A stretch of DNA of 64,000 bases from Actinomycetota bacterium (GCA_947450345.1 CANFVD010000001.1:15936-79935), one strand, 5' to 3'. Numbered from the stretch's first letter, positions 18,290-60,044 are shown. Program-made: numbers and translations. The notes: a model not told the origin generated them from the letters alone.

Positions 18290-18362
18290 GGGTCTGTGGC
18301 GCAGCTGGTAGCGCACCTGCATGGCATGCAGGGGGTCAGGGGTTCGAGTCCCCTCAGATCCA
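18290..18362 (+). tRNA. tRNA-Ala (anticodon GGC)
   Basis: Cloverleaf by hand: acceptor GGGTCTG/CAGATCC with the G3:U70 Ala identity pair, D stem GCGC/GCGC, anticodon stem CCTGC/GCAGG with loop ATGGCAT, T arm AGGGG-TTCGAGT-CCCCT. CCA is not encoded. Confidence 0.95.
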
Positions 18363-18372
18363 CAAAATAAAC

Positions 18373-22533: not shown

Positions 22534-22577
22534 CATGCGAAAGGGGCTTCGAGGCGACTCGGAGCCCCTTTCGCATG
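22534..22577. terminator. long hairpin between convergent yceI-like and FUSC-like genes (possible bidirectional terminator)
   Basis: CATGCGAAAGGGGCT...AGCCCCTTTCGCATG, a stem of 14 bp or more. No clear U tract on either strand. Confidence 0.5.
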
Positions 22578-22586
22578 CTCTGGTGA

Positions 22587-23642
22587 TTAGTCCTCCGTGA
22601 GGATGCCCGTAATTTCTTCGTTGACCAATCGCAGGTTCTCCACCAGAAAACCCTCGAGCACCCAGTTCTTGGTTGAGGGTCGGCTTAGTCGGATGGGTTG
22701 CGTGAGCACGGGAAGGTCGTGTGTCTCCGGGTGAGGAACGTTTATGGCCTCGAGCCCGGTGTCGCGCACCACAATGCGTAGGTCATGTCCGGCGCTTTTG
22801 AGCTCGGCAGCGATTTCGGCGATGTTGGCATCGTTCACGAGGGACTCGTCGTAGTGGTCGCGCACGCCTCGGGAGATGCCAATCGTTCTCGTGGTGACAA
22901 CGGCGAGACGCGCCAACAGGTTTGACAGCTCATCGACCGCGGGCCGGTGCTTGTTGCGTCGAATCATGTTGAACCGCAGGCTCTCGCTGAGTGCGTTGAC
23001 CCGATCGAGGGCCGCGTTGAGTTCGGCACGGAGTCCGCGCGCACGCCAGTAGAGCGTGTTGAGTACCTCGGGGCTCGTGCGTCGAGACAGTACCGCGCCG
23101 AGGTCTTCCAGCAACTGAGCAATGTCACCACCCAGTGTGGCGACGGCGGTGCGTGCCGGAGCGAGGGCGACCGGCGGCACAATCACCGCGTTGACGATGA
23201 TGCCGATGACGGCGCCCAGGATTGTTTCGAGGATGCGCACGAGAGCGTAATCGGGCGCCGCGGCACCGATCACAATCGAGAGCATGGCGCTAATGGCGAT
23301 TTGGTTGGCGGTGGCCGGTGTGAGTTTGAACGCCCATCCCGTGATGATCGCCGCAGCGATGGCGACGAGGACCAACCACGAGGGCGATCCAAAGGCCAAG
23401 CTTGCTCCCAGGGCAATTGCCACGCCAATCACGGTGGCCGTGGACCTCTCGAGGGCTTTGCCGAGTGAGGCGTTCACGCTGGGCTGCACCACGATGATGG
23501 CGGCGATGGCCGCGAACACGGGCGTGTCGGTCTGGAATAGCGGAACGGCAATCAACCAGGCAGCTACGGCGGCGCCGATTGACTTGAGCACCTGCAGAAA
23601 GGGGATGCGTCGTTTCGCCCGTACGTTTGCTCGGATGCTCAC
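22587..23642 (-). CDS. FUSC / aromatic-acid-exporter-like integral membrane protein
   Basis: 351 aa. N-terminal half has 5-6 TM helices (LQVLKSIGAAVAAWLIAVPLF...). C-terminal half is a soluble helical domain. GTG start (23640-23642) overlaps the dnaE2 TGA (23639-23641). Confidence 0.7.
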   Translation of the reverse strand: MSIRANVRAKRRIPFLQVLKSIGAAVAAWLIAVPLFQTDTPVFAAIAAIIVVQPSVNASLGKALERSTATVIGVAIALGASLAFGSPSWLVLVAIAAAIITGWAFKLTPATANQIAISAMLSIVIGAAAPDYALVRILETILGAVIGIIVNAVIVPPVALAPARTAVATLGGDIAQLLEDLGAVLSRRTSPEVLNTLYWRARGLRAELNAALDRVNALSESLRFNMIRRNKHRPAVDELSNLLARLAVVTTRTIGISRGVRDHYDESLVNDANIAEIAAELKSAGHDLRIVVRDTGLEAINVPHPETHDLPVLTQPIRLSRPSTKNWVLEGFLVENLRLVNEEITGILTED

Positions 23643-26600
23643 GGTTTTACGGTAGTCGCGCCGCCGGAGTACTCGTGGCGGCGCGCGCAGAACTCAGCCC
23701 AGAGCTGTTTGAGATCCCACGCCTGGATGGCTTCGATTGAAATGCCTCGTTCACCGGTGCGGCGGGTGCGGCCGCGAATCACCATGAGTTTGGTGCCGAA
23801 CAACAGGGATCCCGTGGCCTGCTGCGCTTCTTCGAAGAAGGTCGCGTCGGCGCATCCGCTGCCGTCGTCGAGGCTGATAAACACGACGCGTTTGCCCGAA
23901 CGCATGGGCGGAGTTTGTGTGGCGATGCGCACGCCGGCCACTAACACCTCGGTTTTACTCCGCAGTGCCAACAGTTGGCTTGCTGGAGTGACGCCCATGT
24001 CGTCAAGCAGGGGCCGGTAGGCCTCGATGAGATGCTCCGAGGCATCCATGTCGAGTACCCCGAGCTCGACCCGAGCGCGGTCGGCGGTCGTGAACTGGGG
24101 GTTTCCGCGCGGAATCGCGTGCCGGTCGTCGATGGTGAAGTTGAGCTGATTGTCGGGGTCGCTGCGCGCGGGGCGCATGGCGGTGAGCTGGCGTACGAAA
24201 GCGATCACATCGCCGCGTGTGGGGAGTGACGTCGCTTCTGGCGAGCCGGCCAACGCGTCAAGTGCCCCCACGAGGGCCAGTCGTTGCATGAGCGCGCGCG
24301 AGGGTCGGGCGCGCTCGTACAGGTCGGTGATGCCCGTGAACGGCTGACCGGCCAGCAGTCGTGCCAGTTCGGCCTCGCTGATGCCGTGCACATCGCGCAG
24401 CGAGAGGCGAATGCCGAGGGTGCCCCCGCGCAGGCGCTCCACGCGGTACTCGTCGATACTGAGGTTGGCATCCAGCGGCAAGATGGGCACGCCCATGCGG
24501 CGCGCTTCGGCCAGCAGGAGGCGTCGGGGATACATGCCCGGATCGTGCGTGAGGATTCCCGCGAGGAACTCTGCCGGATAGTGCGTCTTGAGCCAAGCGC
24601 TCTGATACGTGGGCAGCGCGAAAGCCGCACCGTGTGCTTTGCAAAACCCGAACGAACCAAAACCCTTAAGCACCGCCCAGATGCGCTCGATGTCGGCGTC
24701 GGTGAACAGGCGTTTGCCGGTTTCGGGGTCGCGTCGCTCCGCCGTGCGTTGGCGAAACGCGCGTTCGATTGACGCGGTTGACTTCTCCATGGCGCGCCGT
24801 AGCTCGTCTGCCTCGGCCAGCGTCACGCCCATGCACTCGTGCAGGATGCGCAGAATGTGCTCGTGGTAGATGACCACGCCGTAGCTGTCACGCAGAAAAG
24901 AGCGAAAGCGTGGGTGCAGATAGTTGGGGGCGGTAAAGCCGTGTTTGGCATCGAGGAAGGGTGCCACCATGTTGCCCTTCATGGGCCCGGGGCGAAACAG
25001 CGAGATATCGGCGATGAGGTCGTTGTACTCATCGGGCTGCATCTTGCCGATCAGTTCGCGTTGCCCGGGGCTCTCAATCTGGAACATGCCGAGCGTGTGG
25101 CCGGTGCGAATGTTGGCGAACGTGGCCTCGTCGTCGTGGGGGATGGCGTCGAGCTCGATAAGCCCGTTGGGCTTGATGTACGGGGCGTCACTGGGCAGCT
25201 TGCCCACCTCGGCCGCGTGCGGGCCGTGCATGCGCTGAATCTCGCGCAGGGTGTACGAGAGCGTCGACTGCATGCGCACGCCCAGTACGTCGAGTTTGAG
25301 CAGACCCACGTCATCGATGTCGTCCTTGTCGAACTGACTCATGGGCAGTCCCATGCCGGAGGGTTGCATGGGGCTCAGGTTGTATAGCTCGTTGTTGCCG
25401 AGGATTACGCCACACGGGTGCATGGAGACGTGGCGGGGGAGTCGGTCGAGGCGTTCGGCCACGTCGACGAGCAACTCGAGGCGGGCATCCTCCTCGAGCA
25501 TGGTGACGAACTCACGCATCTCGGGCTTGGTGTCGAGTGCGCGCCGAAAGTCCCGGGCGTTGAAGCGCCAGATGTTCTTGGCGACAAAGCCAATCTGCTC
25601 GGGGGAGAGGCCCAGGGCCATGCCGGCATCGCGCGCGGCACCACGTGCGCGATAGGTGTTCTGCATCGCCATCAGGCTCACGCGGGTACTGCCGTAGCGC
25701 TCAAAGATGGCGCGGTAGACCTCGTGGCGCCTGGCCGACTCCACGTCGATGTCGATGTCGGGCAGTGTCTCGCGCTTGTTGCCCAGGAAGCGCTCAAACA
25801 GCAGGTCGTGCTCGAGGGGGTCGACGTTGCTGATGCGCAGTAGGTACGTGACGATACTGCCCGCGCCGCTGCCGCGCGCCTGGTTGCGGATGCCCATGCG
25901 CCGCATGAGCGCCGACACGTCGGCCACGGTGAGAAAGTACGAGGCAAAGCCAAAGTCATAAATGGTGTTCAGCTCGGTGTCGAGGCGTTCGGTGATGCGC
26001 CGCATCTCGGTGGCTCCCGCGTAGGGGTAGCGCTCACCGATGGCTGCTTCGGTGCTCTGGCGCAGAACTGCGGCGGGGTCACCGCTCAGGCCAATGACAT
26101 CGTTCTCGGGAATCTTGGCCTGACGCCAGCCAAGATCGGTCTCGGGGTCGAGTACGCAGCGCAGGGCGAGGCGTTCGCCGGCCGCGAGCATGCGGTGCGC
26201 GGCTCCCTGATCGAGTCGAGAGGCACGCGCCACGCGCAGGGCGATCGCGTGCATTTCGGCCGGCGTCTTGAGCCACGCCTGGCCGTTGGGTTGTGGCGTG
26301 AACTGGCCCAACGCGCGCAGCATCGCCGCGGCATCCAACACGTCGCCGGTGACGGCATCGTCGGCCTCGAGGTAGCGTGCGGCATTACTGAGCACCGCGG
26401 GTGTCTCGGTGTCGTGAGCGAGCTCGAGCATGGCCACCGCGTGGCGCAGGCTGGCGGTGGTGCCCGGTGCGGTGTCGTGGCACACCACCTCGAGGGCGAT
26501 GGCGCCGGGGAGTGTGTGGGTCCACCAGGCGAGCAGTTCACGCGCCCGTTCGGCCTCACCGCGGGCGAGCGCCTGCCCCACGTCGGAAGCGGGGCCGAGG

Positions 26601-27007
26601 AGGATAGTGACGGTGATGCCGTCGGGACCACGAAGCAGGGGCCTCAGACGCGTGCGGGCGAGCGCCGGGGGCGAACTGCGCGTGCTGCGTGCGTGGGCCG
26701 CGGTGATGGCTCGCGCCATGCTTGCCCACCCGCGCCCCTCGCAGTGCCCGTGGGCAAGTAGGGTGAGTCGACCCGCCGGCCGGCCGTCGCTCTCGCGCAA
26801 CGCGAGGTCTACCCCCACAATCGGCTGAAGTCCGCTGGCCACGCACGCGCGAATGTGCCGCACGGCACCGTAGAGTCCGTCGCGGTCGGTGATGGCCGCC
26901 GCCCACGCGCCCGCGGCCTTCTGCGCCGCCACGAGCGCCTCGGGGCGGGCGGTGCCGTAGTGCGCCGAGAACGCCGAGGCGACGTGCAGGTGGGTGAAGT
27001 CGGGCAT
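23639..27007 (-). CDS. dnaE2: error-prone DNA polymerase III alpha-like subunit DnaE2
   Basis: ORF 23639..27481, trimmed to ATG 27007 (MPDFTHLHVASAFSAHYGTARPE, PHP domain start). 1122 aa. ...FCKAHGAAFALPTYQSAWLKTHYPAEF..., OB fold near the C-terminus. The 158-codon upstream extension is Arg/Pro/Ser-rich and overlaps a better ORF. Confidence 0.9.
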   Translation of the reverse strand: MPDFTHLHVASAFSAHYGTARPEALVAAQKAAGAWAAAITDRDGLYGAVRHIRACVASGLQPIVGVDLALRESDGRPAGRLTLLAHGHCEGRGWASMARAITAAHARSTRSSPPALARTRLRPLLRGPDGITVTILLGPASDVGQALARGEAERARELLAWWTHTLPGAIALEVVCHDTAPGTTASLRHAVAMLELAHDTETPAVLSNAARYLEADDAVTGDVLDAAAMLRALGQFTPQPNGQAWLKTPAEMHAIALRVARASRLDQGAAHRMLAAGERLALRCVLDPETDLGWRQAKIPENDVIGLSGDPAAVLRQSTEAAIGERYPYAGATEMRRITERLDTELNTIYDFGFASYFLTVADVSALMRRMGIRNQARGSGAGSIVTYLLRISNVDPLEHDLLFERFLGNKRETLPDIDIDVESARRHEVYRAIFERYGSTRVSLMAMQNTYRARGAARDAGMALGLSPEQIGFVAKNIWRFNARDFRRALDTKPEMREFVTMLEEDARLELLVDVAERLDRLPRHVSMHPCGVILGNNELYNLSPMQPSGMGLPMSQFDKDDIDDVGLLKLDVLGVRMQSTLSYTLREIQRMHGPHAAEVGKLPSDAPYIKPNGLIELDAIPHDDEATFANIRTGHTLGMFQIESPGQRELIGKMQPDEYNDLIADISLFRPGPMKGNMVAPFLDAKHGFTAPNYLHPRFRSFLRDSYGVVIYHEHILRILHECMGVTLAEADELRRAMEKSTASIERAFRQRTAERRDPETGKRLFTDADIERIWAVLKGFGSFGFCKAHGAAFALPTYQSAWLKTHYPAEFLAGILTHDPGMYPRRLLLAEARRMGVPILPLDANLSIDEYRVERLRGGTLGIRLSLRDVHGISEAELARLLAGQPFTGITDLYERARPSRALMQRLALVGALDALAGSPEATSLPTRGDVIAFVRQLTAMRPARSDPDNQLNFTIDDRHAIPRGNPQFTTADRARVELGVLDMDASEHLIEAYRPLLDDMGVTPASQLLALRSKTEVLVAGVRIATQTPPMRSGKRVVFISLDDGSGCADATFFEEAQQATGSLLFGTKLMVIRGRTRRTGERGISIEAIQAWDLKQLWAEFCARRHEYSGGATTVKP

Positions 27008-27015
27008 GCGTGGCG

Positions 27016-27333
27016 CTACGCAAACAGTCTCTGGTCGAGCTCGACCGTGGAGGCCCCGACGAGACGCCAGCCGTCTCCGTGTTGGGCGAGGTCGTACACG
27101 CCGTCGTCGCGCGGGGCTCCCGACGTGAGGGCAATCGCATCCACGCGCCACGTGGGCACGTCGAGGGGAAGTGTGCGGCCCCGGGTGACGCGGTCGCTCT
27201 GCTGCCACCAGGCACGGCGGCTCAGCCACGGTTCGGGCGCGCTCACTATGGCGTAGCTGATGCCGCGCCAGCGAAATGAGAGGGGAACTCCTCCGGCCGA
27301 GAGATCCACTCCGACGGGTTCGTCGATGTACAT
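27016..27333 (-). CDS. conserved-looking hypothetical protein, 105 aa, Trp-rich, first gene of the dnaE2 transcription unit
   Basis: ATG 27333 has GAGGAG 6 nt upstream. Third codon positions are strongly G/C. 6 Trp. No TM helix or signal peptide. Stop is 8 nt before the dnaE2 ATG. Confidence 0.7.
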   Translation of the reverse strand: MYIDEPVGVDLSAGGVPLSFRWRGISYAIVSAPEPWLSRRAWWQQSDRVTRGRTLPLDVPTWRVDAIALTSGAPRDDGVYDLAQHGDGWRLVGASTVELDQRLFA

Positions 27334-27351
27334 GGAGGCTCCTCGTGAAAT

Positions 27352-27367
27352 TCGAATATATCTTCGA
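27352..27367 (-). promoter_or_regulatory. LexA (SOS) box-like palindrome
   Basis: Plus strand reads TCGAATATATCTTCGA. The mycobacterial/actinobacterial consensus is TCGAAC-N4-GTTCGA, and both half-sites differ only at the innermost base. It lies 19-34 nt upstream of ATG 27333. Confidence 0.55.
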
Positions 27368-27372
27368 ATACC

Positions 27373-27394
27373 ACGTTAGAAAAAACCACGGACA
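27373..27394 (-). promoter_or_regulatory. RecA-NDp / PafBC-type DNA-damage promoter-like motif
   Basis: Minus strand reads TGTCCGTG-GTTTTTTC-TAACGT. The motif described for mycobacteria is tTGTCRgtg-N8-TAnnnT; the single deviation is C for R. The -10-like hexamer ends 5 nt before the LexA-like box. Confidence 0.45.
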
Positions 27395-27426
27395 GCAAAG
27401 TGTGGAGGACAGGTTGAGGGTTGTTC

Positions 27427-27455
27427 GTTCGGGGAAGTTCGGAACGTCCCCGAAC
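27427..27455. repeat. 29-nt near-perfect palindrome
   Basis: GTTCGGGGAAGTTCGGAACGTCCCCGAAC. It matches its own reverse complement at 26 of 29 positions (two symmetric mismatches plus the central base). No flanking U tract. Confidence 0.7.
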
Positions 27456-27507
27456 TCATCTGCGCTGAAAATTAGGTTCAATCAAGATAATGTGAGCAGA
27501 GACGAGA

Positions 27508-27523
27508 GTGAAGAAATCTTCAC
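27508..27523. promoter_or_regulatory. 16-nt perfect palindrome upstream of the PH-SHOCT gene (candidate operator or 5'-UTR hairpin)
   Basis: GTGAAGA-AA-TCTTCAC, 20 nt upstream of ATG 27543. GATAAT (27485-27490) is a possible -10. Confidence 0.35.
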
Positions 27524-27542
27524 AAAACATAAGGGGAAAATT

Positions 27543-28061
27543 ATGGCGGGCGAGACACTGTGGGAGGGCGAACGGAATTCGCTCACGGCGGCAGCAACCG
27601 GGGGCAAGGTTGTATCGGAAAAATACCGACTTACCCCCGAATACATTTACGTCGAGCGGGGTCTGATTGGTTCTAAGGCTGATCAGTATCCGACTTGGGC
27701 AATACGAGATATCGACGTCACTTCCAGCCTCGTGCAGAAGGCCCGTAGCCTCTCCACACTTAAGGTCCATCTGCAACATGATGAATACACTGGGGCGGAT
27801 CAAGTCAACTTGGAAAACATCAGTGGTGGCAAAGAATTACGCGACACTCTCAACCGCATTGCAAATGAGGCACGACTACTTCGCCAGCAACAGTCACAGA
27901 CAGTCCACTACTCAGGTTCTGCCCCAATAGCCCAAGGGGCTCCCGCTTCACAAAGTGCTTTTGACCCAATTGAGCAACTAACAAAATTAGGGGATCTTCT
28001 ATCAAAGGGCCTTATTTCTCAGGAAGAATTTGACGCTCAAAAAGCAAAACTCCTTGGCTAG
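27543..28061 (+). CDS. bacterial PH domain (bPH_2/YdbT-like) protein with C-terminal SHOCT domain
   Basis: ORF 27276..28061, trimmed to ATG 27543 (AAGGGGA RBS). YRLTPEYIYVERGLIGSKADQYPTWAIRDIDVTSSLVQKARSLSTLKVHL resembles bPH_2. The C-terminal DPIEQLTKLGDLLSKGLISQEEFDAQKAKLLG is a typical SHOCT motif. GC is markedly lower than the flanks. Confidence 0.75.
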   Translation: MAGETLWEGERNSLTAAATGGKVVSEKYRLTPEYIYVERGLIGSKADQYPTWAIRDIDVTSSLVQKARSLSTLKVHLQHDEYTGADQVNLENISGGKELRDTLNRIANEARLLRQQQSQTVHYSGSAPIAQGAPASQSAFDPIEQLTKLGDLLSKGLISQEEFDAQKAKLLG

Positions 28062-28463: not shown

Positions 28464-29561
28464 CTAGCTGTAGCGGCGGGTCGGCGCATCCCCGGGTTCG
28501 AGCACTCCGAGGTTGGTGAGTTGTTCGATCATGCCGGCACCGTCGTGCGCGTAAACCCAGGGCGCGGTGCCGCGCAGCTCCTTGGCGAGGCCCTTGCGTC
28601 GGCCACCGGCGAGCACGGCCTCGGAGGTCGAGAGCTGGCGAATGGCCACGAAGGCCACGTTGTCGGGGTGGTTCTCCTCGAACTCACCGTAGATGACCTC
28701 GTCGTGTTGGCCGTCGTCACCGACCATGATCCATTTGACGTGGGGAAAATCCTTGGCAATTTTTTCGAGCTGGCGCTTCTTGTGCTCTTGACCCGATCGA
28801 AACAGGCGATCGTGGGTGGGGCCCCAGTCGGTGAGCAGCATGGTGCCTACCGGATAAAGATTGCGGGACAGAAAACGGCGAAGCGTGGGAGCCACGTTCC
28901 ACGCACCCGTGGAGAGGTAGAACACGGGCATGCCGGATTCCAACTGCGACATGCGCGACAAGAACACCGCCATGCCGGGAGTGGGAACGCGGGCGTGCTC
29001 GGTGAGCACAAACGAGTTCCACGCGGCCAAGAACGGTCGGGGCAGTGCCGTCACCATCACGGTGTCGTCGACGTCACAGATGATCCCGCGCGTGGCCGTG
29101 GGCGATGCCACGTTGATGAGCGCATCAACGGGGAGCGAATCTTCTACGGTCAAGTGGGCAACGTGCTCGCCCTGAGGTAGCGCAAAGGCGAGGTGCACAT
29201 CGACCACGCCGCCACGGTCGGCCGTGACCGTCTCGGTGTAGCCGTCGATGCTGATGGTCACTTGGGCGCTGGCAACGGGAACACTGACGAAAGAACGCCA
29301 GCCGCGCACCGACTCGAAGCGGCGCGCAAACTTGCGTGCCCGGCGACTTCCTGGTTTCAGTACCGGTGCAAGCACGACCCGGCACAGCACGCGAATCTCG
29401 GTGGCGGTGCCGTATCCGCGGTACGGCACGATCGTGGGCAGAAGTCCGCGGCGTCGCGCGAGTCGGGCCCGAAGCTTGTGCATTCGGTCTTCAAACCGCG
29501 CGAGCGGATGAATCTTGGGCAGCTGCTGCGTTGCGTGCCGTACCCGTTGCGATGACGCCAT
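28464..29561 (-). CDS. App1-family (DUF2183) putative phosphatidate phosphatase
   Basis: 365 aa. DxDxT-type motif IICDVDDTVMVT, ...MLLTDWGPT..., ...IMVGDDGQHDEVIYGEF. Confidence 0.72.
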   Translation of the reverse strand: MASSQRVRHATQQLPKIHPLARFEDRMHKLRARLARRRGLLPTIVPYRGYGTATEIRVLCRVVLAPVLKPGSRRARKFARRFESVRGWRSFVSVPVASAQVTISIDGYTETVTADRGGVVDVHLAFALPQGEHVAHLTVEDSLPVDALINVASPTATRGIICDVDDTVMVTALPRPFLAAWNSFVLTEHARVPTPGMAVFLSRMSQLESGMPVFYLSTGAWNVAPTLRRFLSRNLYPVGTMLLTDWGPTHDRLFRSGQEHKKRQLEKIAKDFPHVKWIMVGDDGQHDEVIYGEFEENHPDNVAFVAIRQLSTSEAVLAGGRRKGLAKELRGTAPWVYAHDGAGMIEQLTNLGVLEPGDAPTRRYS

Positions 29562-32419: not shown

Positions 32420-34963
32420 ATGAGTACCGAACAGGCAGGGACGCCCGAGAACGCCGGGGCTGACCCCCGCGACGCCGAAACCTTCGACTTTCGCTCCATT
32501 CAGGAGAAGTGGCTGCCCGTCTGGGATGAGCGCGAACCTTTCCGGGCCGACAGCCCCGCTGATGACCGCCCGCGCAAGTACGTGCTCGACATGTTCCCCT
32601 ACCCCTCGGGTGACCTCCACATGGGTCACGCCGAAGCGTATGCACTCGGCGATGTCATTGCCCGCTACTGGCGTCACCGCGGCTACAACGTGCTGCACCC
32701 CATCGGGTGGGACTCTTTTGGCCTTCCGGCCGAGAACGCGGCAATTAAGCGCAACCTGAATCCCGTCACGTGGACCTACGACAACATCGAGCAGCAGCGC
32801 ACATCGATGCGCCGTTATGCCGCATCCTTCGACTGGTCGCGCGTCATCCACACGTCTGATCCCGAGTATTACAAGTGGAACCAGTGGCTGTTCCTCCAGA
32901 TGTACAAGAAGGGCCTCGCCTACCGCAAGGATTCCTGGGTGAACTGGGATCCGGTCGACCAAACGGTGCTGGCTAACGAACAGGTGATGCCCGACGGCAC
33001 CTCGGAGCGTTCCGGTGCCATCGTCGTCAAGAAGAAGCTCACCCAGTGGTACTTCCGCATTACCGAGTACGCCGACCGCCTTCTCGATGACCTCGACAAG
33101 CTCGAGGGTGCCTGGCCGTCCAAGGTGCTCACCATGCAGCGCAACTGGATTGGCCGCTCGCGCGGCGCCGACGTTGCCTTCGAGATCGAAGGACGCCCTG
33201 AGCCTGTGACGGTGTTCACCACACGCCCCGATACGCTCTGGGGTGCCACATTTATGGTGGTTGCCCCCGATGCCGACCTCGCCAGCGAACTCGTGGCCGA
33301 AGCCGATGCCGACGTGCAGTTGGCCTTCACCGAGTACCTCACGGAGACGCAGAAAGCCACCGAGATCGAGCGGCAGAATGCCGATCGCCCCAAGACAGGA
33401 GTCTTCCTCGGGCGTTACGCCATCAACCCCGTGAATGGCGAGCGCATCCCCGTGTGGGCCGCCGATTACGTTCTGGCCGACTACGGTCACGGCGCCATCA
33501 TGGCGGTACCCGCACACGACCAGCGCGACCTCGACTTTGCGCGCACCTACGACCTGCCGATTCGCGTTGTCGTGGAACAGGCACCTGTCGAGCCCGGTGA
33601 GACCAACGACCCCGCCATCACGGGTAAGGCGCTCGCCGGAGACGGCAAACTCGTCAACTCCGGACCGCTCGACGGTCTGACTAAGGTTGACGCCATCGAG
33701 CGCGCCATCGCCGTGCTGGCGGAGCGTGGAACCGGCGCGGCGGCCACCAACTTCCGCCTGCGCGATTGGCTCATCTCACGCCAGCGCTATTGGGGAACAC
33801 CCATCCCTATCATTCACGCCGAGGACGGCACTGAGATCCCCGTTCCCGAAGACCAGCTTCCCGTGGTCTTGCCGCCCACCGAGGGCCTCAATCTGCAGCC
33901 CAAGGGCTCATCGCCCCTCGGCGCTGCCGAGGACTGGGTGAACGTACCGAGCCCCATCGATGGATCGCCCGCGCGTCGCGACCCCGACACCATGGACACC
34001 TTCGTCGACAGTTCGTGGTATTTCCTGCGCTTCCTGTCCCCGAACGACGACACCCAGGCCTTCGATCCAGCACAGGCCAAGCGCTGGGCGCCCGTAGATC
34101 AGTATGTCGGCGGCGTGACTCACGCCATTCTGCACTTGCTCTACGCCCGCTTCATCACCAAGGTGCTGTTCGACCTCGGGTTGGTCGACTTCGACGAGCC
34201 GTTCACCGCGCTGCTCAACCAGGGCATGGTTCTCATGGACGGTTCGGCCATGAGCAAGTCAAAGGGCAACATCGTCAAGCTGTCGGATCAGCTCGAGGAG
34301 CACGGTATTGACGCCGTGCGTCTCACCATGGCGTTCGCTGGTCCGCCCGAGGATGACATCGACTGGGCCGATGTGTCGCCCGCTGCGAGTAACAAGTTTC
34401 TTGCACGCGCCTGGCGTATGGCTGGCGACGTGACAAGCGCGCCGGGCACTGACCCGGCATCCGGTGATGCGGCCCTGCGCCGTGTGACCCACGCCCTCCT
34501 TGCGGATGCACCGGCACTCGTTGAGTCGTTCAAGTTCAATGTTCTCGTGGCCCGCCTGATGGAACTGGTCAACGTCACGCGCAAGGTGATTGACTCGGGT
34601 GCTGGTGGAGCCGATCCGGCGGTGCGCGAGGCCGCCGAGGTGACCGCCCTGATGCTTGATCTTTACGCGCCGTACACCTCCGAAGAGATGTGGTCGATGC
34701 TCGGCCATGAGCCGTGTGTGTCGCTCGTTGAGTGGCCCGTGGCCGACGCCTCGCTGCTCGTGCACGACTCGGTCACGGCAGTGGTTCAGGTTGATGGCAA
34801 AGTGCGCGATCGCCTTGAGGTGTCTCCCGATATCGCCGACGACGAGTTTGAGCGTCTGGCTCGCGACCTGCCGGGCGTCGTGCGCGCCCTCGAGGGTCGC
34901 GAGATTGTGAACGTCATTGTGCGAGCTCCCAAGCTCGTCAATATCGCGACAAAACCCGCTTAG
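32420..34963 (+). CDS. leuS: leucyl-tRNA synthetase
   Basis: 847 aa. [16 protein letters not shown] (HIGH) and MSKSKGNIV (KMSKS). ATG lies 6 nt after the pabB stop. Confidence 0.96.
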
Positions 34964-35066
34964 TCGCAAAGCGGTAACCTCTCGCCCACAGCGCGATGGC
35001 AGCGACCTGTTTCGCAACCGACCGCGCTCCAGCCTCGTTGCCGCTGCCGCTCGGTAACGTCACGCC

Positions 35067-35705
35067 GTGCGTTCTCGTCTGAGTTGGATCATCACATCCG
35101 TCGTTGGCGTTGTCGTGGTCTCGATTGCTGTTGTGACGGCACTGAACGCCGGTTCGTCATCGCGCACGATTCCCGTTGTCGTCCCGACAGCGCTGCTGAG
35201 TACAGGAGAGCCTGGCCTGTCGACGGGCCCCGCCGGTGAGGGGTCATTTTCGTCGTCGACATCGCCGGAGATTTACGTTCACGTCGTGGGCGGTGTGGTG
35301 CGCCCAGGGCTGTACCGCCTCGCGCCGGGTTCGCGCATCATCGATGCCGTCATGGCGGCCGGGGGACTGGCGCCGGATGGTTCGCAGTGTCAGGTCAACT
35401 TGGCTCGGATGGTCACTGACGGCGAGCAGGTCGTGGTGCCGCAGGCTCCGCCCGGCACGCCGTGTCGTTCAGTGCAGGCAGGCGGTGGCTCGTCGGGTGG
35501 GGTGACGGGAAGTGGCCCGGTGAGTCTGTCCACGGCCACACTTGAGCAGCTCGATGCGCTTCCCGGCATTGGTTCGGCCTTGGCGCAACGAATCATCGAT
35601 TACCGGGAAGCGAATGGGGGATTTCGCAGCGTCGATCAATTGAACGAGGTGTCGGGCATCGGATCAAAGGTTTTGGCAAACATTGCTCCGCTCGTTACGC
35701 CGTAG
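35067..35705 (+). CDS. comEA: ComEA-family DNA-binding protein (SLBB plus helix-hairpin-helix)
   Basis: 212 aa. N-terminal TM. ...VHVVGGVVRPGLYRL..GSRIIDAV..AGG... C-terminal LDALPGIGSALAQRIIDYREANGGFRSVDQLNEVSGIG. Confidence 0.82.
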   Translation: MRSRLSWIITSVVGVVVVSIAVVTALNAGSSSRTIPVVVPTALLSTGEPGLSTGPAGEGSFSSSTSPEIYVHVVGGVVRPGLYRLAPGSRIIDAVMAAGGLAPDGSQCQVNLARMVTDGEQVVVPQAPPGTPCRSVQAGGGSSGGVTGSGPVSLSTATLEQLDALPGIGSALAQRIIDYREANGGFRSVDQLNEVSGIGSKVLANIAPLVTP

Positions 35706-37632
35706 GGGTATCGACCTGCGCCTGGCCCTCGTGGCGGCCGTGGTGTGGGCACTTCAACTTGTCATCACGTTGTCGACGCGCAACGACAACACCTCCGAAC
35801 GTGCCGAATCGATGGCACCGCCCGAGTGGCAACAGTCGTTCGCCGAGGTGGTGCGCGGACTCCCCGGTGATGGCGGCGCCCTCGTGCCGGGTCTGACGCT
35901 GGGGGACACCTCGATGGTTAGCCACGGGTTGTCCAGTGCGATGCGCGTGGCCTCACTCACGCACCTCACGGCCGTCTCGGGGGCGAACTGCGCCATCGTC
36001 ACAGTGAGCGTGATGGCGTTGGCCGCCCTGCTGGGCGCACCGCGCTGGACGCGGGTGTTGGCTGGCCTCATCGCTCTCGTGGGTTTCGTCATGGTGGTGG
36101 GACTCCAACCGAGCGTCGTTCGAGCCGCGGTCATGGCAGCTGTCGTTCTCCTTTCGGTGGCTTCGGGGCGTCCGGGCGCGGGCATCCCCGTGGTGTCGTT
36201 TGCGGTGTGCGTCTTGCTGCTCATCTTTCCCGCCTGGTCTGTGTCGCCGGGGTTCACGCTGTCGGTCGCTGCGACTGTGGCCATCCTGACCCTTGCGCCC
36301 GTGTTGGCACGCCGGTTCGTGGAATGGGCTGAGGCGTTGTTCGAACGGTGGTCGGCGCAGCGCTGGTTTATGAAAACGTCGCCAACCAAGCGTCGAAACG
36401 CGGCCCTCGTCCTCGCGGTTCCCGTCTCCACACAATTGGTGTGCCAACCGCTCATCGTTCTTTTTGCCCCGGTGTGGCCCACCTACGGTGTGATCGCCAA
36501 CATGCTCGCCGAGCCGGCGGCTCCGCTCGCCACGATTATCGGAATGCTGGCTTTCGTTGTGGCGCCCGTTGCGCCGTGGCTCGCGCACGCGCTTGCGTGG
36601 GTGGGGTGGGTCCCCGCCGCGTGGATTGCCGCGGTGGCCACCACTGTGGCGCGATTACCGCTGGCGAGCCTGCCGTGGCTCGACGGACTCAGCGGTGTCG
36701 CCTGCATGGCGGCGGCGAGTGTTTTTCTGTGTCTCGTGATTTTGGCCCGCCGGAGACCATTTCGGACGGCGGGGGCGGTCGGCACAGCATTTACGCTCGG
36801 GCTGTCCCTCGTTGTGGGGCTGACACATTCCGTGGGCGTCCTCGTGACGCGCCCCGCCGACTGGCGGATCGCCATGTGCGATGTGGGTCAGGGGGATGCG
36901 TTTGTCGTGCGCGGATTCGACCAAGGTGGCGCGCCGCACCAGATTCTCGTGGACACGGGTCGACATCCCGAGTTGGTCGACGCGTGCCTGCGCGAACTGG
37001 ACATCTCCACGCTGGACGTCGTGATGTTGACCCACTTCGACATGGATCACGCGGGCGGGATTGAGGCGCTCTACGGTCACACATCGAGAGCCGTAATCTC
37101 GGCTCCCCAGCGCGCGGGCGATGTCTGGGTCGTTGGCGACATGATCTCCCACGGCATCAAGGTGTCACGTGCGACGGCGGGGCAGCATCTCTCCCTCGGC
37201 GACACGGAATGTACGATCCTGTGGCCGGCGCCCGGTCATCCCAGCATGCAGGGTGGCAACCCCGGCAGCATCGCACTCAGCGTTGTGGCACCGGGTTTCA
37301 CGGCTCTTTTTCTGGCCGACCTCGGGGAGGAAGCGCAAAACGCGCTTCTCGCAGATCATCCCGGTCTGGGACGTGTCGACATCGTCAAGGTGGCGCACCA
37401 CGGATCGGCAGATCAGTCGTCTCGGCTCATGGCGGTATTGCATCCCCGGTTGGCTTTGCTGTCCGTCGGGCGCGACAACGGCTACGGGCATCCCACACAC
37501 AAGACACTGGACCTGATTGAGAGTGTGGGGGCCCGCAGCGAACGAACCGATCTATCGGGCATGGTTTTGATCTCTGCCTCTCTCGGCGACCTGCGCGTGT
37601 GGAGAGCGAGCGGTGGGGGTGGGTCTGGCTAG
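35683..37632 (+). CDS. comEC: ComEC/Rec2 DNA internalization channel with C-terminal metallo-beta-lactamase domain
   Basis: 649 aa. Competence domain ...SLTHLTAVSGANCAIV... with many TM helices. MBL motif ...MCDVGQGDAFVV...LTHFDMDHAGG...VAHHGS. Start uncertain (TTG 35683 overlaps the comEA end). Confidence 0.85.
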   Translation: MLRSLRRRGIDLRLALVAAVVWALQLVITLSTRNDNTSERAESMAPPEWQQSFAEVVRGLPGDGGALVPGLTLGDTSMVSHGLSSAMRVASLTHLTAVSGANCAIVTVSVMALAALLGAPRWTRVLAGLIALVGFVMVVGLQPSVVRAAVMAAVVLLSVASGRPGAGIPVVSFAVCVLLLIFPAWSVSPGFTLSVAATVAILTLAPVLARRFVEWAEALFERWSAQRWFMKTSPTKRRNAALVLAVPVSTQLVCQPLIVLFAPVWPTYGVIANMLAEPAAPLATIIGMLAFVVAPVAPWLAHALAWVGWVPAAWIAAVATTVARLPLASLPWLDGLSGVACMAAASVFLCLVILARRRPFRTAGAVGTAFTLGLSLVVGLTHSVGVLVTRPADWRIAMCDVGQGDAFVVRGFDQGGAPHQILVDTGRHPELVDACLRELDISTLDVVMLTHFDMDHAGGIEALYGHTSRAVISAPQRAGDVWVVGDMISHGIKVSRATAGQHLSLGDTECTILWPAPGHPSMQGGNPGSIALSVVAPGFTALFLADLGEEAQNALLADHPGLGRVDIVKVAHHGSADQSSRLMAVLHPRLALLSVGRDNGYGHPTHKTLDLIESVGARSERTDLSGMVLISASLGDLRVWRASGGGGSG

Positions 37633-59965: not shown

Positions 59966-60038
59966 TCCTCGATAGCTCAATTGGCAGAGCAGCCGGCTGT
60001 TAACCGGCAGGTTGTTGGTTCGAGTCCAACTCGGGGAG
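59966..60038 (+). tRNA. tRNA-Asn (anticodon GTT)
   Basis: Acceptor TCCTCGA/TCGGGGA, D arm GCTC-AATTGGCA-GAGC, anticodon stem GCCGG/CCGGC with loop CTGTTAA, T arm GTTGG-TTCGAGT-CCAAC. Confidence 0.95.
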
Positions 60039-60044
60039 CGAACA

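Follow-up and report, generated by a model that had tools for sequence, protein, structure and literature searches.

A 64,000-nucleotide (nt) stretch of DNA from an Actinomycetota bacterium (GCA_947450345.1, CANFVD010000001.1:15936-79935; hereafter the window) carries a compact cassette of three genes on its minus strand. The first gene, ORF105 (27016..27333), encodes 105 amino acids (aa) from an ATG start, with the Shine-Dalgarno sequence GAGGAG (27339-27344) 5 nt ahead of that ATG. The second, dnaE2 (23639..27007, stop codon included), encodes a DNA polymerase of 1122 aa, its ATG at 27005-27007 and its TGA at 23639-23641. The third (22587..23642) encodes a 351-aa membrane protein of the FUSC_2/ArAE_1 type from a GTG start. 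The junctions are tight: a gap of 8 nt, free of any Shine-Dalgarno sequence, separates the ORF105 stop from the dnaE2 ATG, and the dnaE2 TGA overlaps the GTG of the FUSC-like gene as GTGA. A preliminary description, made from the sequence alone, had singled out these three same-strand genes, and all of its coordinates hold. It saw in them a compact, damage-response-type cassette without adjacent imuA or imuB, as do we. It also raised the prospect of an accessory configuration of the mutagenic polymerase not previously described. We consider it very likely, on identity and on regulatory logic as read from sequence, that the cassette is a DnaE2B-ImuB-C module; because ORF105 is a free-standing ImuB C-terminal domain (ImuB-C), it would belong to an already catalogued type of polymerase module, made up of two genes and inducible by damage.

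ORF105 and the polymerase

ORF105 had been left unassigned, but it matches the Pfam family DUF6504 (PF20114) with 28.7 bits (E=1.6e-6), above the gathering score of 24.2. By BLASTP it matched two proteins labelled ImuB-C in the literature, Cryobacterium arcticum ANP72398 (E=5e-14) and Arthrobacter alpinus ALV45565 (E=3e-11). As references for ImuB itself, the last 110 residues were aligned of six Y-family ImuB proteins from plasmid imuA-imuB-dnaE2 cassettes (Cupriavidus, Streptomyces, Roseomonas, Granulicella, Ralstonia, and Manganitrophus). When a 68-sequence DUF6504 profile was compared with these six C-termini in hhalign, the match (E=3.5e-5, probability 72%) gave moderate support for a relationship; its 78 co-linear columns took in the whole domain, including the WW motif and the C-terminal Trp. 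A sub-threshold Pfam DUF6504 match (E=0.055) falls at the expected place in the Granulicella ImuB. Finally, a lexA operon on an Abditibacteriota plasmid has the order iPolY-DUF6504-dnaE2, where iPolY is an inactive-looking Y-family gene with an IMS domain; by its gene order and domains, this arrangement is a split ImuB. Given the Pfam match, the similarity to labelled ImuB-C proteins, the profile match to ImuB, and the split ImuB of the plasmid, ORF105 is by homology a standalone ImuB-C, that is, the predicted DnaE2-binding piece of the ImuB that was supposedly missing.

The DUF6504 profile gave no hhalign match to one single ImuB C-terminus, and word-indexed protein searches, whether with ORF105 alone or with the 68-sequence profile, returned close DUF6504 proteins only and no full-length ImuB. 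Nothing was found in searches of solved structures with the DUF6504 profile or with one ImuB. When 1.8 billion representatives were searched exhaustively with HMMER, 102 relatives came up, 100 of them about 60-180 aa long (mostly about 85-130 aa); the two long hits, P0145 and P0195, were discarded as low-complexity or repeat proteins. A genome-collection scan with ORF105 as the single protein found close relatives, aside from a false positive in Rubripirellula (L007), where the match lies inside unrelated long open reading frames.

The preliminary description had called ORF105 Trp-rich, which needs a small correction: the protein has 6 Trp in 105 residues, five of them invariant or nearly so in the family. 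The DUF6504 consensus contains an invariant Pro and an invariant Trp together with four more near-invariant Trp, the Trp positions being W21, W41, W42, W61, and W88. An AlphaFold2 model of ORF105 built on the family alignment (pLDDT 89, pTM 0.79) has seven strands and a short C-terminal helix, and a Foldseek search with it gave no significant neighbour in the PDB (no match with E<0.5). The domain is small and all-beta, has conserved Trp and basic residues, and shows neither a catalytic motif nor a known fold relative; such a fold fits the description of ImuB-C, in a 2026 survey, as a beta-barrel without PDB relatives (PMC12926913). The helical C-terminal tail of ORF105 (residues about 96-105, 27016-27042, minus strand) ends in DQRLFA. 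A tail of the form [DE]-x-[RQ]-L-F-A is common to the chromosomal Microbacteriaceae ImuB-C proteins (the window, L003, L022, L008, L012, L014, and L023) and does not occur in the Micrococcaceae, Propionibacteriaceae, plasmid, or Cryobacterium homologs; it may be a degenerate clamp-binding or polymerase-docking peptide.

The polymerase has a full C-family architecture, with Pfam PHP, DNA_pol3_alpha palm/NTPase, finger, HHH_6, and OB domains. Its scores against the NCBIfam models were 596 for DnaE1 (cut-off 1002) and 583.9 bits for canonical DnaE2 (NF004225; cut-off 939). It shares 42% identity with a Streptomyces plasmid DnaE2B of the DinB2-associated type as compared to 29-30% with DnaE2A from imuA-imuB cassettes, and its N-terminal 400 aa share 45-48% with the A. 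alpinus and Cryobacterium DnaE2B of PMC12926913. By these pairwise identities, the polymerase belongs with DnaE2B rather than DnaE2A. The palm motif PDIDID (residues 416-421, 25745..25762, minus strand) supplies two catalytic aspartates, is invariant throughout the clade, and is common to DnaE2A, DnaE2B, and DnaE2X; the third catalytic Asp we take to lie in LKLDVLG, by analogy to E. coli D555. The HxH motif of the PHP domain is also kept, and the polymerase is presumably active.

Toward the C-terminus, QLNFTI (residues 954-959, 24131..24148, minus strand) is a candidate internal beta-clamp-binding motif. The whole clade, together with the Streptomyces DnaE2B, keeps a motif of the Q-L-x-L/F type here, whereas the two DnaE2A sequences compared have a gap or no motif there. 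By phmmer, QLNFTI aligns to a loop of Pol III alpha in which the E. coli and T. aquaticus enzymes have their internal clamp-binding motif; the alignment required a longer segment of the polymerase, as the C-terminal 253 aa alone gave no PDB match.

The dnaE2 start at ATG 27007 agrees with the N-termini of approximately 20 homologs, all of which begin at that position. A longer reading frame of 1280 aa from TTG 27481 (23639-27481, minus strand) overlaps ORF105 in another frame; since none of these N-termini supports the extension, it was rejected as an upstream read-through artefact. An automatic gene caller could over-extend dnaE2 to this TTG and miss ORF105, and for several public dnaE2 homologs the annotated N-terminus is a little longer (proteins of 1137-1198 aa).

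Conserved linkage and the promoter region

Gene neighbourhoods were compared at 15 related loci besides the window. The DUF6504 gene lies directly upstream of dnaE2 in 12 of the 15, at a spacing of -4 to +39 nt. Direct pairing, as in the window, was observed in Aurantimicrobium, Alpinimonas, Gulosibacter, Agrococcus, Nesterenkonia, Glutamicibacter, and Kocuria, in a 75%-identical metagenome-assembled genome (MAG) and a MAG of the Propionibacteriaceae, and on plasmids of Arthrobacter and Agreia; it spans the Microbacteriaceae, Micrococcaceae, and Propionibacteriaceae as well as the two plasmids. In the other three loci (Frondihabitans, Frigoribacterium, and Clavibacter), DUF6504 lies 4-6.4 kb upstream of dnaE2 on the same strand, with inserted genes between; its position in Clavibacter was predicted from the Frigoribacterium layout and then found there. 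The association of ORF105 with dnaE2 across genomes, which the preliminary description had put up for checking, is therefore well founded. Its statement that neither flank encodes a Y-family-like or RecA-fold protein was also borne out: no homolog of Y-family, RecA-fold, ImuA, LexA, or SOS-response-associated peptidase (SRAP) proteins was found in the flanks of the module or elsewhere in the 64-kb window, and tblastn found no match to imuA or imuB within it.

The plasmid copies of the pair, on Arthrobacter pYA7-1a (L015, 5992-10281) and Agreia pCOWG (L017, 5173-9584), form a compact unit flanked by a SRAP gene. At a permissive threshold (E up to 10), ORF105 matched 46 plasmid records, 38 of them from Arthrobacter-group genera and 24 predicted to be conjugative; three regions were inspected, and two weak matches, H8 and H18, carried no annotation. 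Chromosomal copies in Gulosibacter, Agrococcus, Clavibacter, and Kocuria also have a SRAP gene nearby.

The SOS-type motif reported upstream of the cassette is a predicted LexA box of actinobacterial type, TCGAAGATATATTCGA (TCGAAG-ATAT-ATTCGA, 27352..27367), the sole exact match to TCGAA-N6-TTCGA in the window. It is located 5 nt downstream of a -10-like hexamer, TAACGT, and 34 nt before the ORF105 ATG. Exact matches numbered 13 in 212 kb of related loci; each of the 13 stands immediately upstream of a DUF6504 gene or, where the pair is split, of dnaE2, 16-79 nt from the start of the gene. In a promoter alignment of six loci the box is identical and the flanks have diverged. Where the two genes are apart, in Frondihabitans (L014, 1542 and 5969) and Clavibacter (L025, 3546 and 9939), one box precedes each gene, and those of Clavibacter share one sequence (TCGAACATCCGTTCGA). 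Frigoribacterium (L023) has a box (5922) before the separated dnaE2, and the approximately 30 nt of sequence upstream of DUF6504 are too few to check for another. The boxes provide strong comparative evidence that DUF6504 and dnaE2 are co-regulated.

Adjoining the box is a promoter element of the RecA-NDp (PafBC) type, TGTCCGTG-N8-TAACGT (27373..27394, minus strand), in which TAACGT would be the -10 element. The consensus, reportedly defined by Gamulin and co-workers in 2004, is said to be TGTCRGTG-N8-TAnnnT. A single match was found in the window, where 0.02 were expected, and it has a C at the R position. The pattern recurs upstream of the DUF6504 gene at 11 related loci, a Streptomyces plasmid has it upstream of lexA (L021, ~8445), and the related loci gave no other match; in the six-locus alignment TGTCCGTG-N8-TAACGT is conserved while the flanks diverge. 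PafBC acts through RecA-NDp promoters in mycobacteria and is present in Arthrobacter and Kocuria, and genes with both a RecA-NDp element and an SOS box exist (PMC6789036, PMC8223512). The two motifs together suggest dual control of the module, with PafBC as activator and LexA as repressor. The box begins 5 nt past the -10-like hexamer, where it is suitably placed for repression. A literature search found no paper that brings together PafBC, RecA-NDp, and dnaE2. A sigma-70 consensus scan returned no promoter, a result that carries no information on actinobacterial promoters of this type.

The divergent intergenic region also has a palindrome at 27427-27455 (GTTCGGGGAAGTTC / GAACGTCCCCGAAC), its 14-nt arms 93% complementary. 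It was considered as a second operator and rejected, since its conservation fails already among the nearest relatives, L001-L003 (88-99% identical); it is probably outside the conserved control region.

Proposed mechanism and alternative readings

Starting from the gene structure, homologies, conserved linkage, and conserved operator and promoter motifs observed at these loci, we infer the induction, complex formation, clamp binding, and mutagenic activity of the module. It would be a chromosomal, DNA-damage-inducible, two-subunit translesion or mutagenic polymerase. One promoter would drive imuB-C, then dnaE2B, then, in this lineage, the FUSC-like gene, up to a hairpin at 22534-22577. LexA bound directly after the -10 element would block transcription until its RecA-stimulated self-cleavage, whereupon PafBC would boost expression via the RecA-NDp-like element. 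The 8-nt gap without a Shine-Dalgarno sequence suggests that translation of dnaE2 is coupled to that of imuB-C, which would give matched amounts of the two proteins. The 105-aa all-beta ImuB-C would then bind the PHP domain of DnaE2B, as models of full-length ImuB have it for the same domain; dimer models also exist for orthologous pairs. DnaE2B would reach the clamp through its own internal motif, which would explain why neither a Y-family ImuB scaffold nor ImuA is needed.

The place of the third gene in this scheme is less central. Its product matches FUSC_2 (60.1 bits, 3e-16), FUSC (47.3, 2e-12), and ArAE_1 (46.4, 6e-12), all above cut-offs, and the preliminary description had taken it for a partner of the polymerase. 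A three-gene functional unit, in which the FUSC-like protein served as a polymerase accessory, for example by exporting a genotoxic aromatic compound during the SOS response or as a membrane tether, would account for several features of the locus. The GTGA overlap leaves no room for a terminator, and a strong hairpin comes only after the FUSC-like gene (22534..22577), between it and the convergent YceI gene. The hairpin, described earlier as having a stem of at least 14 bp, was found to have a 15+4 bp stem (-35.2 kcal/mol, z = -7.66; 0/200 shuffles as stable); it has no U-tract, so the consensus terminator scan did not list it, but it is likely a bidirectional terminator that ends the unit. 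The same-strand adjacency of dnaE2 and FUSC has moreover been kept from the lineage of the window to Clavibacter despite FUSC identity as low as 42%, and Clavibacter keeps it though DUF6504 has moved 6 kb away. A transporter linked to the SOS response also has a precedent in lexA-dinF of E. coli. Against such a unit, FUSC orthologs (42-89% identity) follow dnaE2 only in L003, L005, L022, L008, and L009/L025, that is, in Aurantimicrobium, L005, the 75%-identical MAG, Alpinimonas, and Clavibacter, which make up one Microbacteriaceae subclade; the count is the window plus five related loci, one of the five a fragment. At the remaining 10 loci no FUSC ortholog adjoins dnaE2; among them are Gulosibacter, Agrococcus, Frondihabitans, Frigoribacterium, every Micrococcaceae and Propionibacteriaceae locus, and both plasmids; Frigoribacterium has a FUSC paralog only, at 24% identity and in divergent orientation. 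Where a gap of 38-72 nt separates FUSC from dnaE2, no SOS box precedes the FUSC gene. Unrelated neighbours (YceI, the APP1-type phosphatase, and GH3) are likewise conserved within the FUSC-bearing subclade, so ordinary synteny explains the adjacency at least as well as a functional link. We therefore consider the three-gene unit distinctly improbable. The FUSC-like gene is a lineage-specific neighbour of the module rather than a general partner; it is probably co-transcribed with dnaE2 here and probably not a core part of the module.

A different objection to the DnaE2B-ImuB-C assignment would be that the polymerase is a second replicative-type DnaE, a paralog of DnaE1, and that the upstream reading frame is unrelated or spurious. 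The best NCBIfam score of the polymerase is indeed to the DnaE1 model, NCBI calls most of its homologs 'DNA polymerase III subunit alpha', and both the HxH PHP motif and the clamp-motif candidate are as in DnaE1. The DnaE1 and DnaE2 scores, however, both fall far under the curated cut-offs; a conserved LexA box precedes the gene; the pair travels on plasmids beside SRAP genes; and ORF105 is conserved in three families, gives a confident fold prediction, and is preceded by a Shine-Dalgarno sequence of its own. The phylogeny in the published survey also places the orthologs in DnaE2B (PMC12926913). With this evidence, a DnaE1 paralog is highly improbable. Several observations nevertheless weigh against the DnaE2B-ImuB-C reading. 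The polymerase scores marginally higher for the DnaE1 model than for the DnaE2 model, the hhalign probability for the link between DUF6504 and ImuB is just 72%, and Pfam DUF6504 stays below threshold on all six ImuB proteins. The actinobacterial LexA box consensus is TCGAAC-N4-GTTCGA, from which the window box departs at two symmetric positions, and two loci, L011 and L026, have no exact box. For complex formation, as proposed above, the published AlphaFold-Multimer models are of orthologous pairs rather than of the pair in the window, and a Y-family partner with a RecA-binding motif may lie beyond the 64 kb of this genome covered by the window.

Three further readings concern the details of the DnaE2B-ImuB-C module. 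In this Microbacteriaceae branch, clamp access may proceed via both QLNFTI and the ImuB-C tail, which are lacking in canonical DnaE2A; PafBC and LexA may be wired together at the promoter; and the overlapping FUSC-like exporter may be a true SOS-induced operon member. The literature consulted describes none of the three. Taken jointly, we regard these as rather unlikely.

Genomic setting and comparison with known systems

The module is flanked by SHOCT/bPH, APP1, VTT, aminotransferase, YceI, and GH3 genes. The divergent neighbour of ORF105 encodes a bPH_2 (bacterial PH) and SHOCT protein (27276-28061, plus strand), with a start probably near 27548; beyond it lies an APP1-type phosphatidate phosphatase gene (28464-29561, minus strand), with counterparts upstream of the module in Alpinimonas, L022, Gulosibacter, and Clavibacter. 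In base composition the cassette region is like the rest of the window, a housekeeping stretch of chromosome encoding IleS, FolC, RNase E/G, Obg, LeuS, ComEC, LepA, LeuA, a dGTPase-like HD protein, and DnaG. The close relatives returned by a genome-collection scan were uncultured freshwater Microbacteriaceae and Aurantimicrobium MAGs. Proximity of the module to leuS and comEC (32420-37632 in the window) recurs in Nesterenkonia (L010, 10342-15380), and to leuS in L022 (1-2365), which suggests an old, vertically inherited position in the Micrococcales. The only Rfam or ARAGORN matches in the window were tRNA-Ala(GGC) (18290-18363) and tRNA-Asn(GTT) (59966-60039); neither program detected a riboswitch or small RNA family there.

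The pairing of a solo ImuB-C with DnaE2 has been on record for some time. ImuB-C was named in 2013, when solo ImuB-C with DnaE2 was already noted (Aravind and co-workers, PMC3765255), and ImuA-less variants with standalone ImuB-C were described in 2019 (Timinskas and Venclovas, PMC6511836). According to the 2026 survey (PMC12926913), DnaE2B is the DnaE2 group of genomes without imuA and imuB, a subgroup of it is linked to ImuB-C alone, and the DnaE2-[ImuB-C] arrangement is restricted to Actinobacteria. The examples of DnaE2B-ImuB-C dimers given there are Arthrobacter alpinus ALV45564/ALV45565, Cryobacterium arcticum ANP72397/ANP72398, and Pseudarthrobacter psychrotolerans, and its supplementary file 5 lists good AlphaFold-Multimer dimers for three species, one of them from the Microbacteriaceae. 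The catalogued module has the two genes in the same order as the window and no ImuA, ImuB, or PolY gene nearby, and its examples, like the window, belong to the Micrococcales, Cryobacterium also to the same family. Since the cassette of the window is an ortholog of this catalogued module, the claim of an undescribed configuration is unsupported.

The window copy differs from the catalogued examples in coming from an uncultured freshwater Microbacteriaceae lineage, in the helical, LFA-ending C-terminal tail of its ImuB-C, which the A. alpinus and Cryobacterium proteins lack, and in the FUSC-like gene joined at its 3' end. It adds no new kind of system. What the comparison adds to the published descriptions consulted is the promoter architecture (the available text of PMC12926913 contains no description of promoter or operator architecture for DnaE2B-ImuB-C), the separate boxes in split loci, the LFA tail of Microbacteriaceae ImuB-C, the plasmid copies beside SRAP genes, and the lineage-specific FUSC passenger. 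The comparative data sharpen several testable points: the LexA box, the adjoining PafBC-type element, the candidate clamp motif, and the mobile two-gene unit on plasmids of Arthrobacter and Agreia.

The split-ImuB systems stand close to the window. These comprise iPolY + ImuB-C + DnaE2X and PolY + ImuB-C + DnaE2B + RecA, of the Kyrpidia, Tessaracoccus, and Janibacter types (PMC6511836, PMC12926913). Like the window, they have a standalone ImuB-C gene right upstream of dnaE2, and LexA often controls them, but they carry a Y-family gene in the operon, whereas the window has none in the operon or within its 64 kb.

The canonical ImuA-ImuB-DnaE2 mutasome of Proteobacteria and mycobacteria likewise combines a LexA-controlled, error-prone C-family polymerase with an ImuB-C beta-barrel, and in published models of it ImuB-C contacts the PHP domain of DnaE2. 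In contrast, the module of the window is without the RecA-like ImuA, the Y-family body, a RecA-NT motif, and ImuB's clamp-binding motif, and its polymerase is, by sequence comparison, a DnaE2B with 29-30% identity to DnaE2A and what seems to be its own clamp motif. Among predicted forms of the bacterial DnaE2 mutasome the DnaE2B-ImuB-C pair is the smallest, which makes it useful for asking what ImuB-C does without a Y-family scaffold and ImuA. Mycobacterial mutasome genes are usually described as primarily LexA-controlled. The closer regulatory parallel to the window is found in mycobacterial genes under dual LexA and PafBC control, such as recA, which likewise carry a RecA-NDp-type element and an SOS box in one upstream region (PMC8223512).

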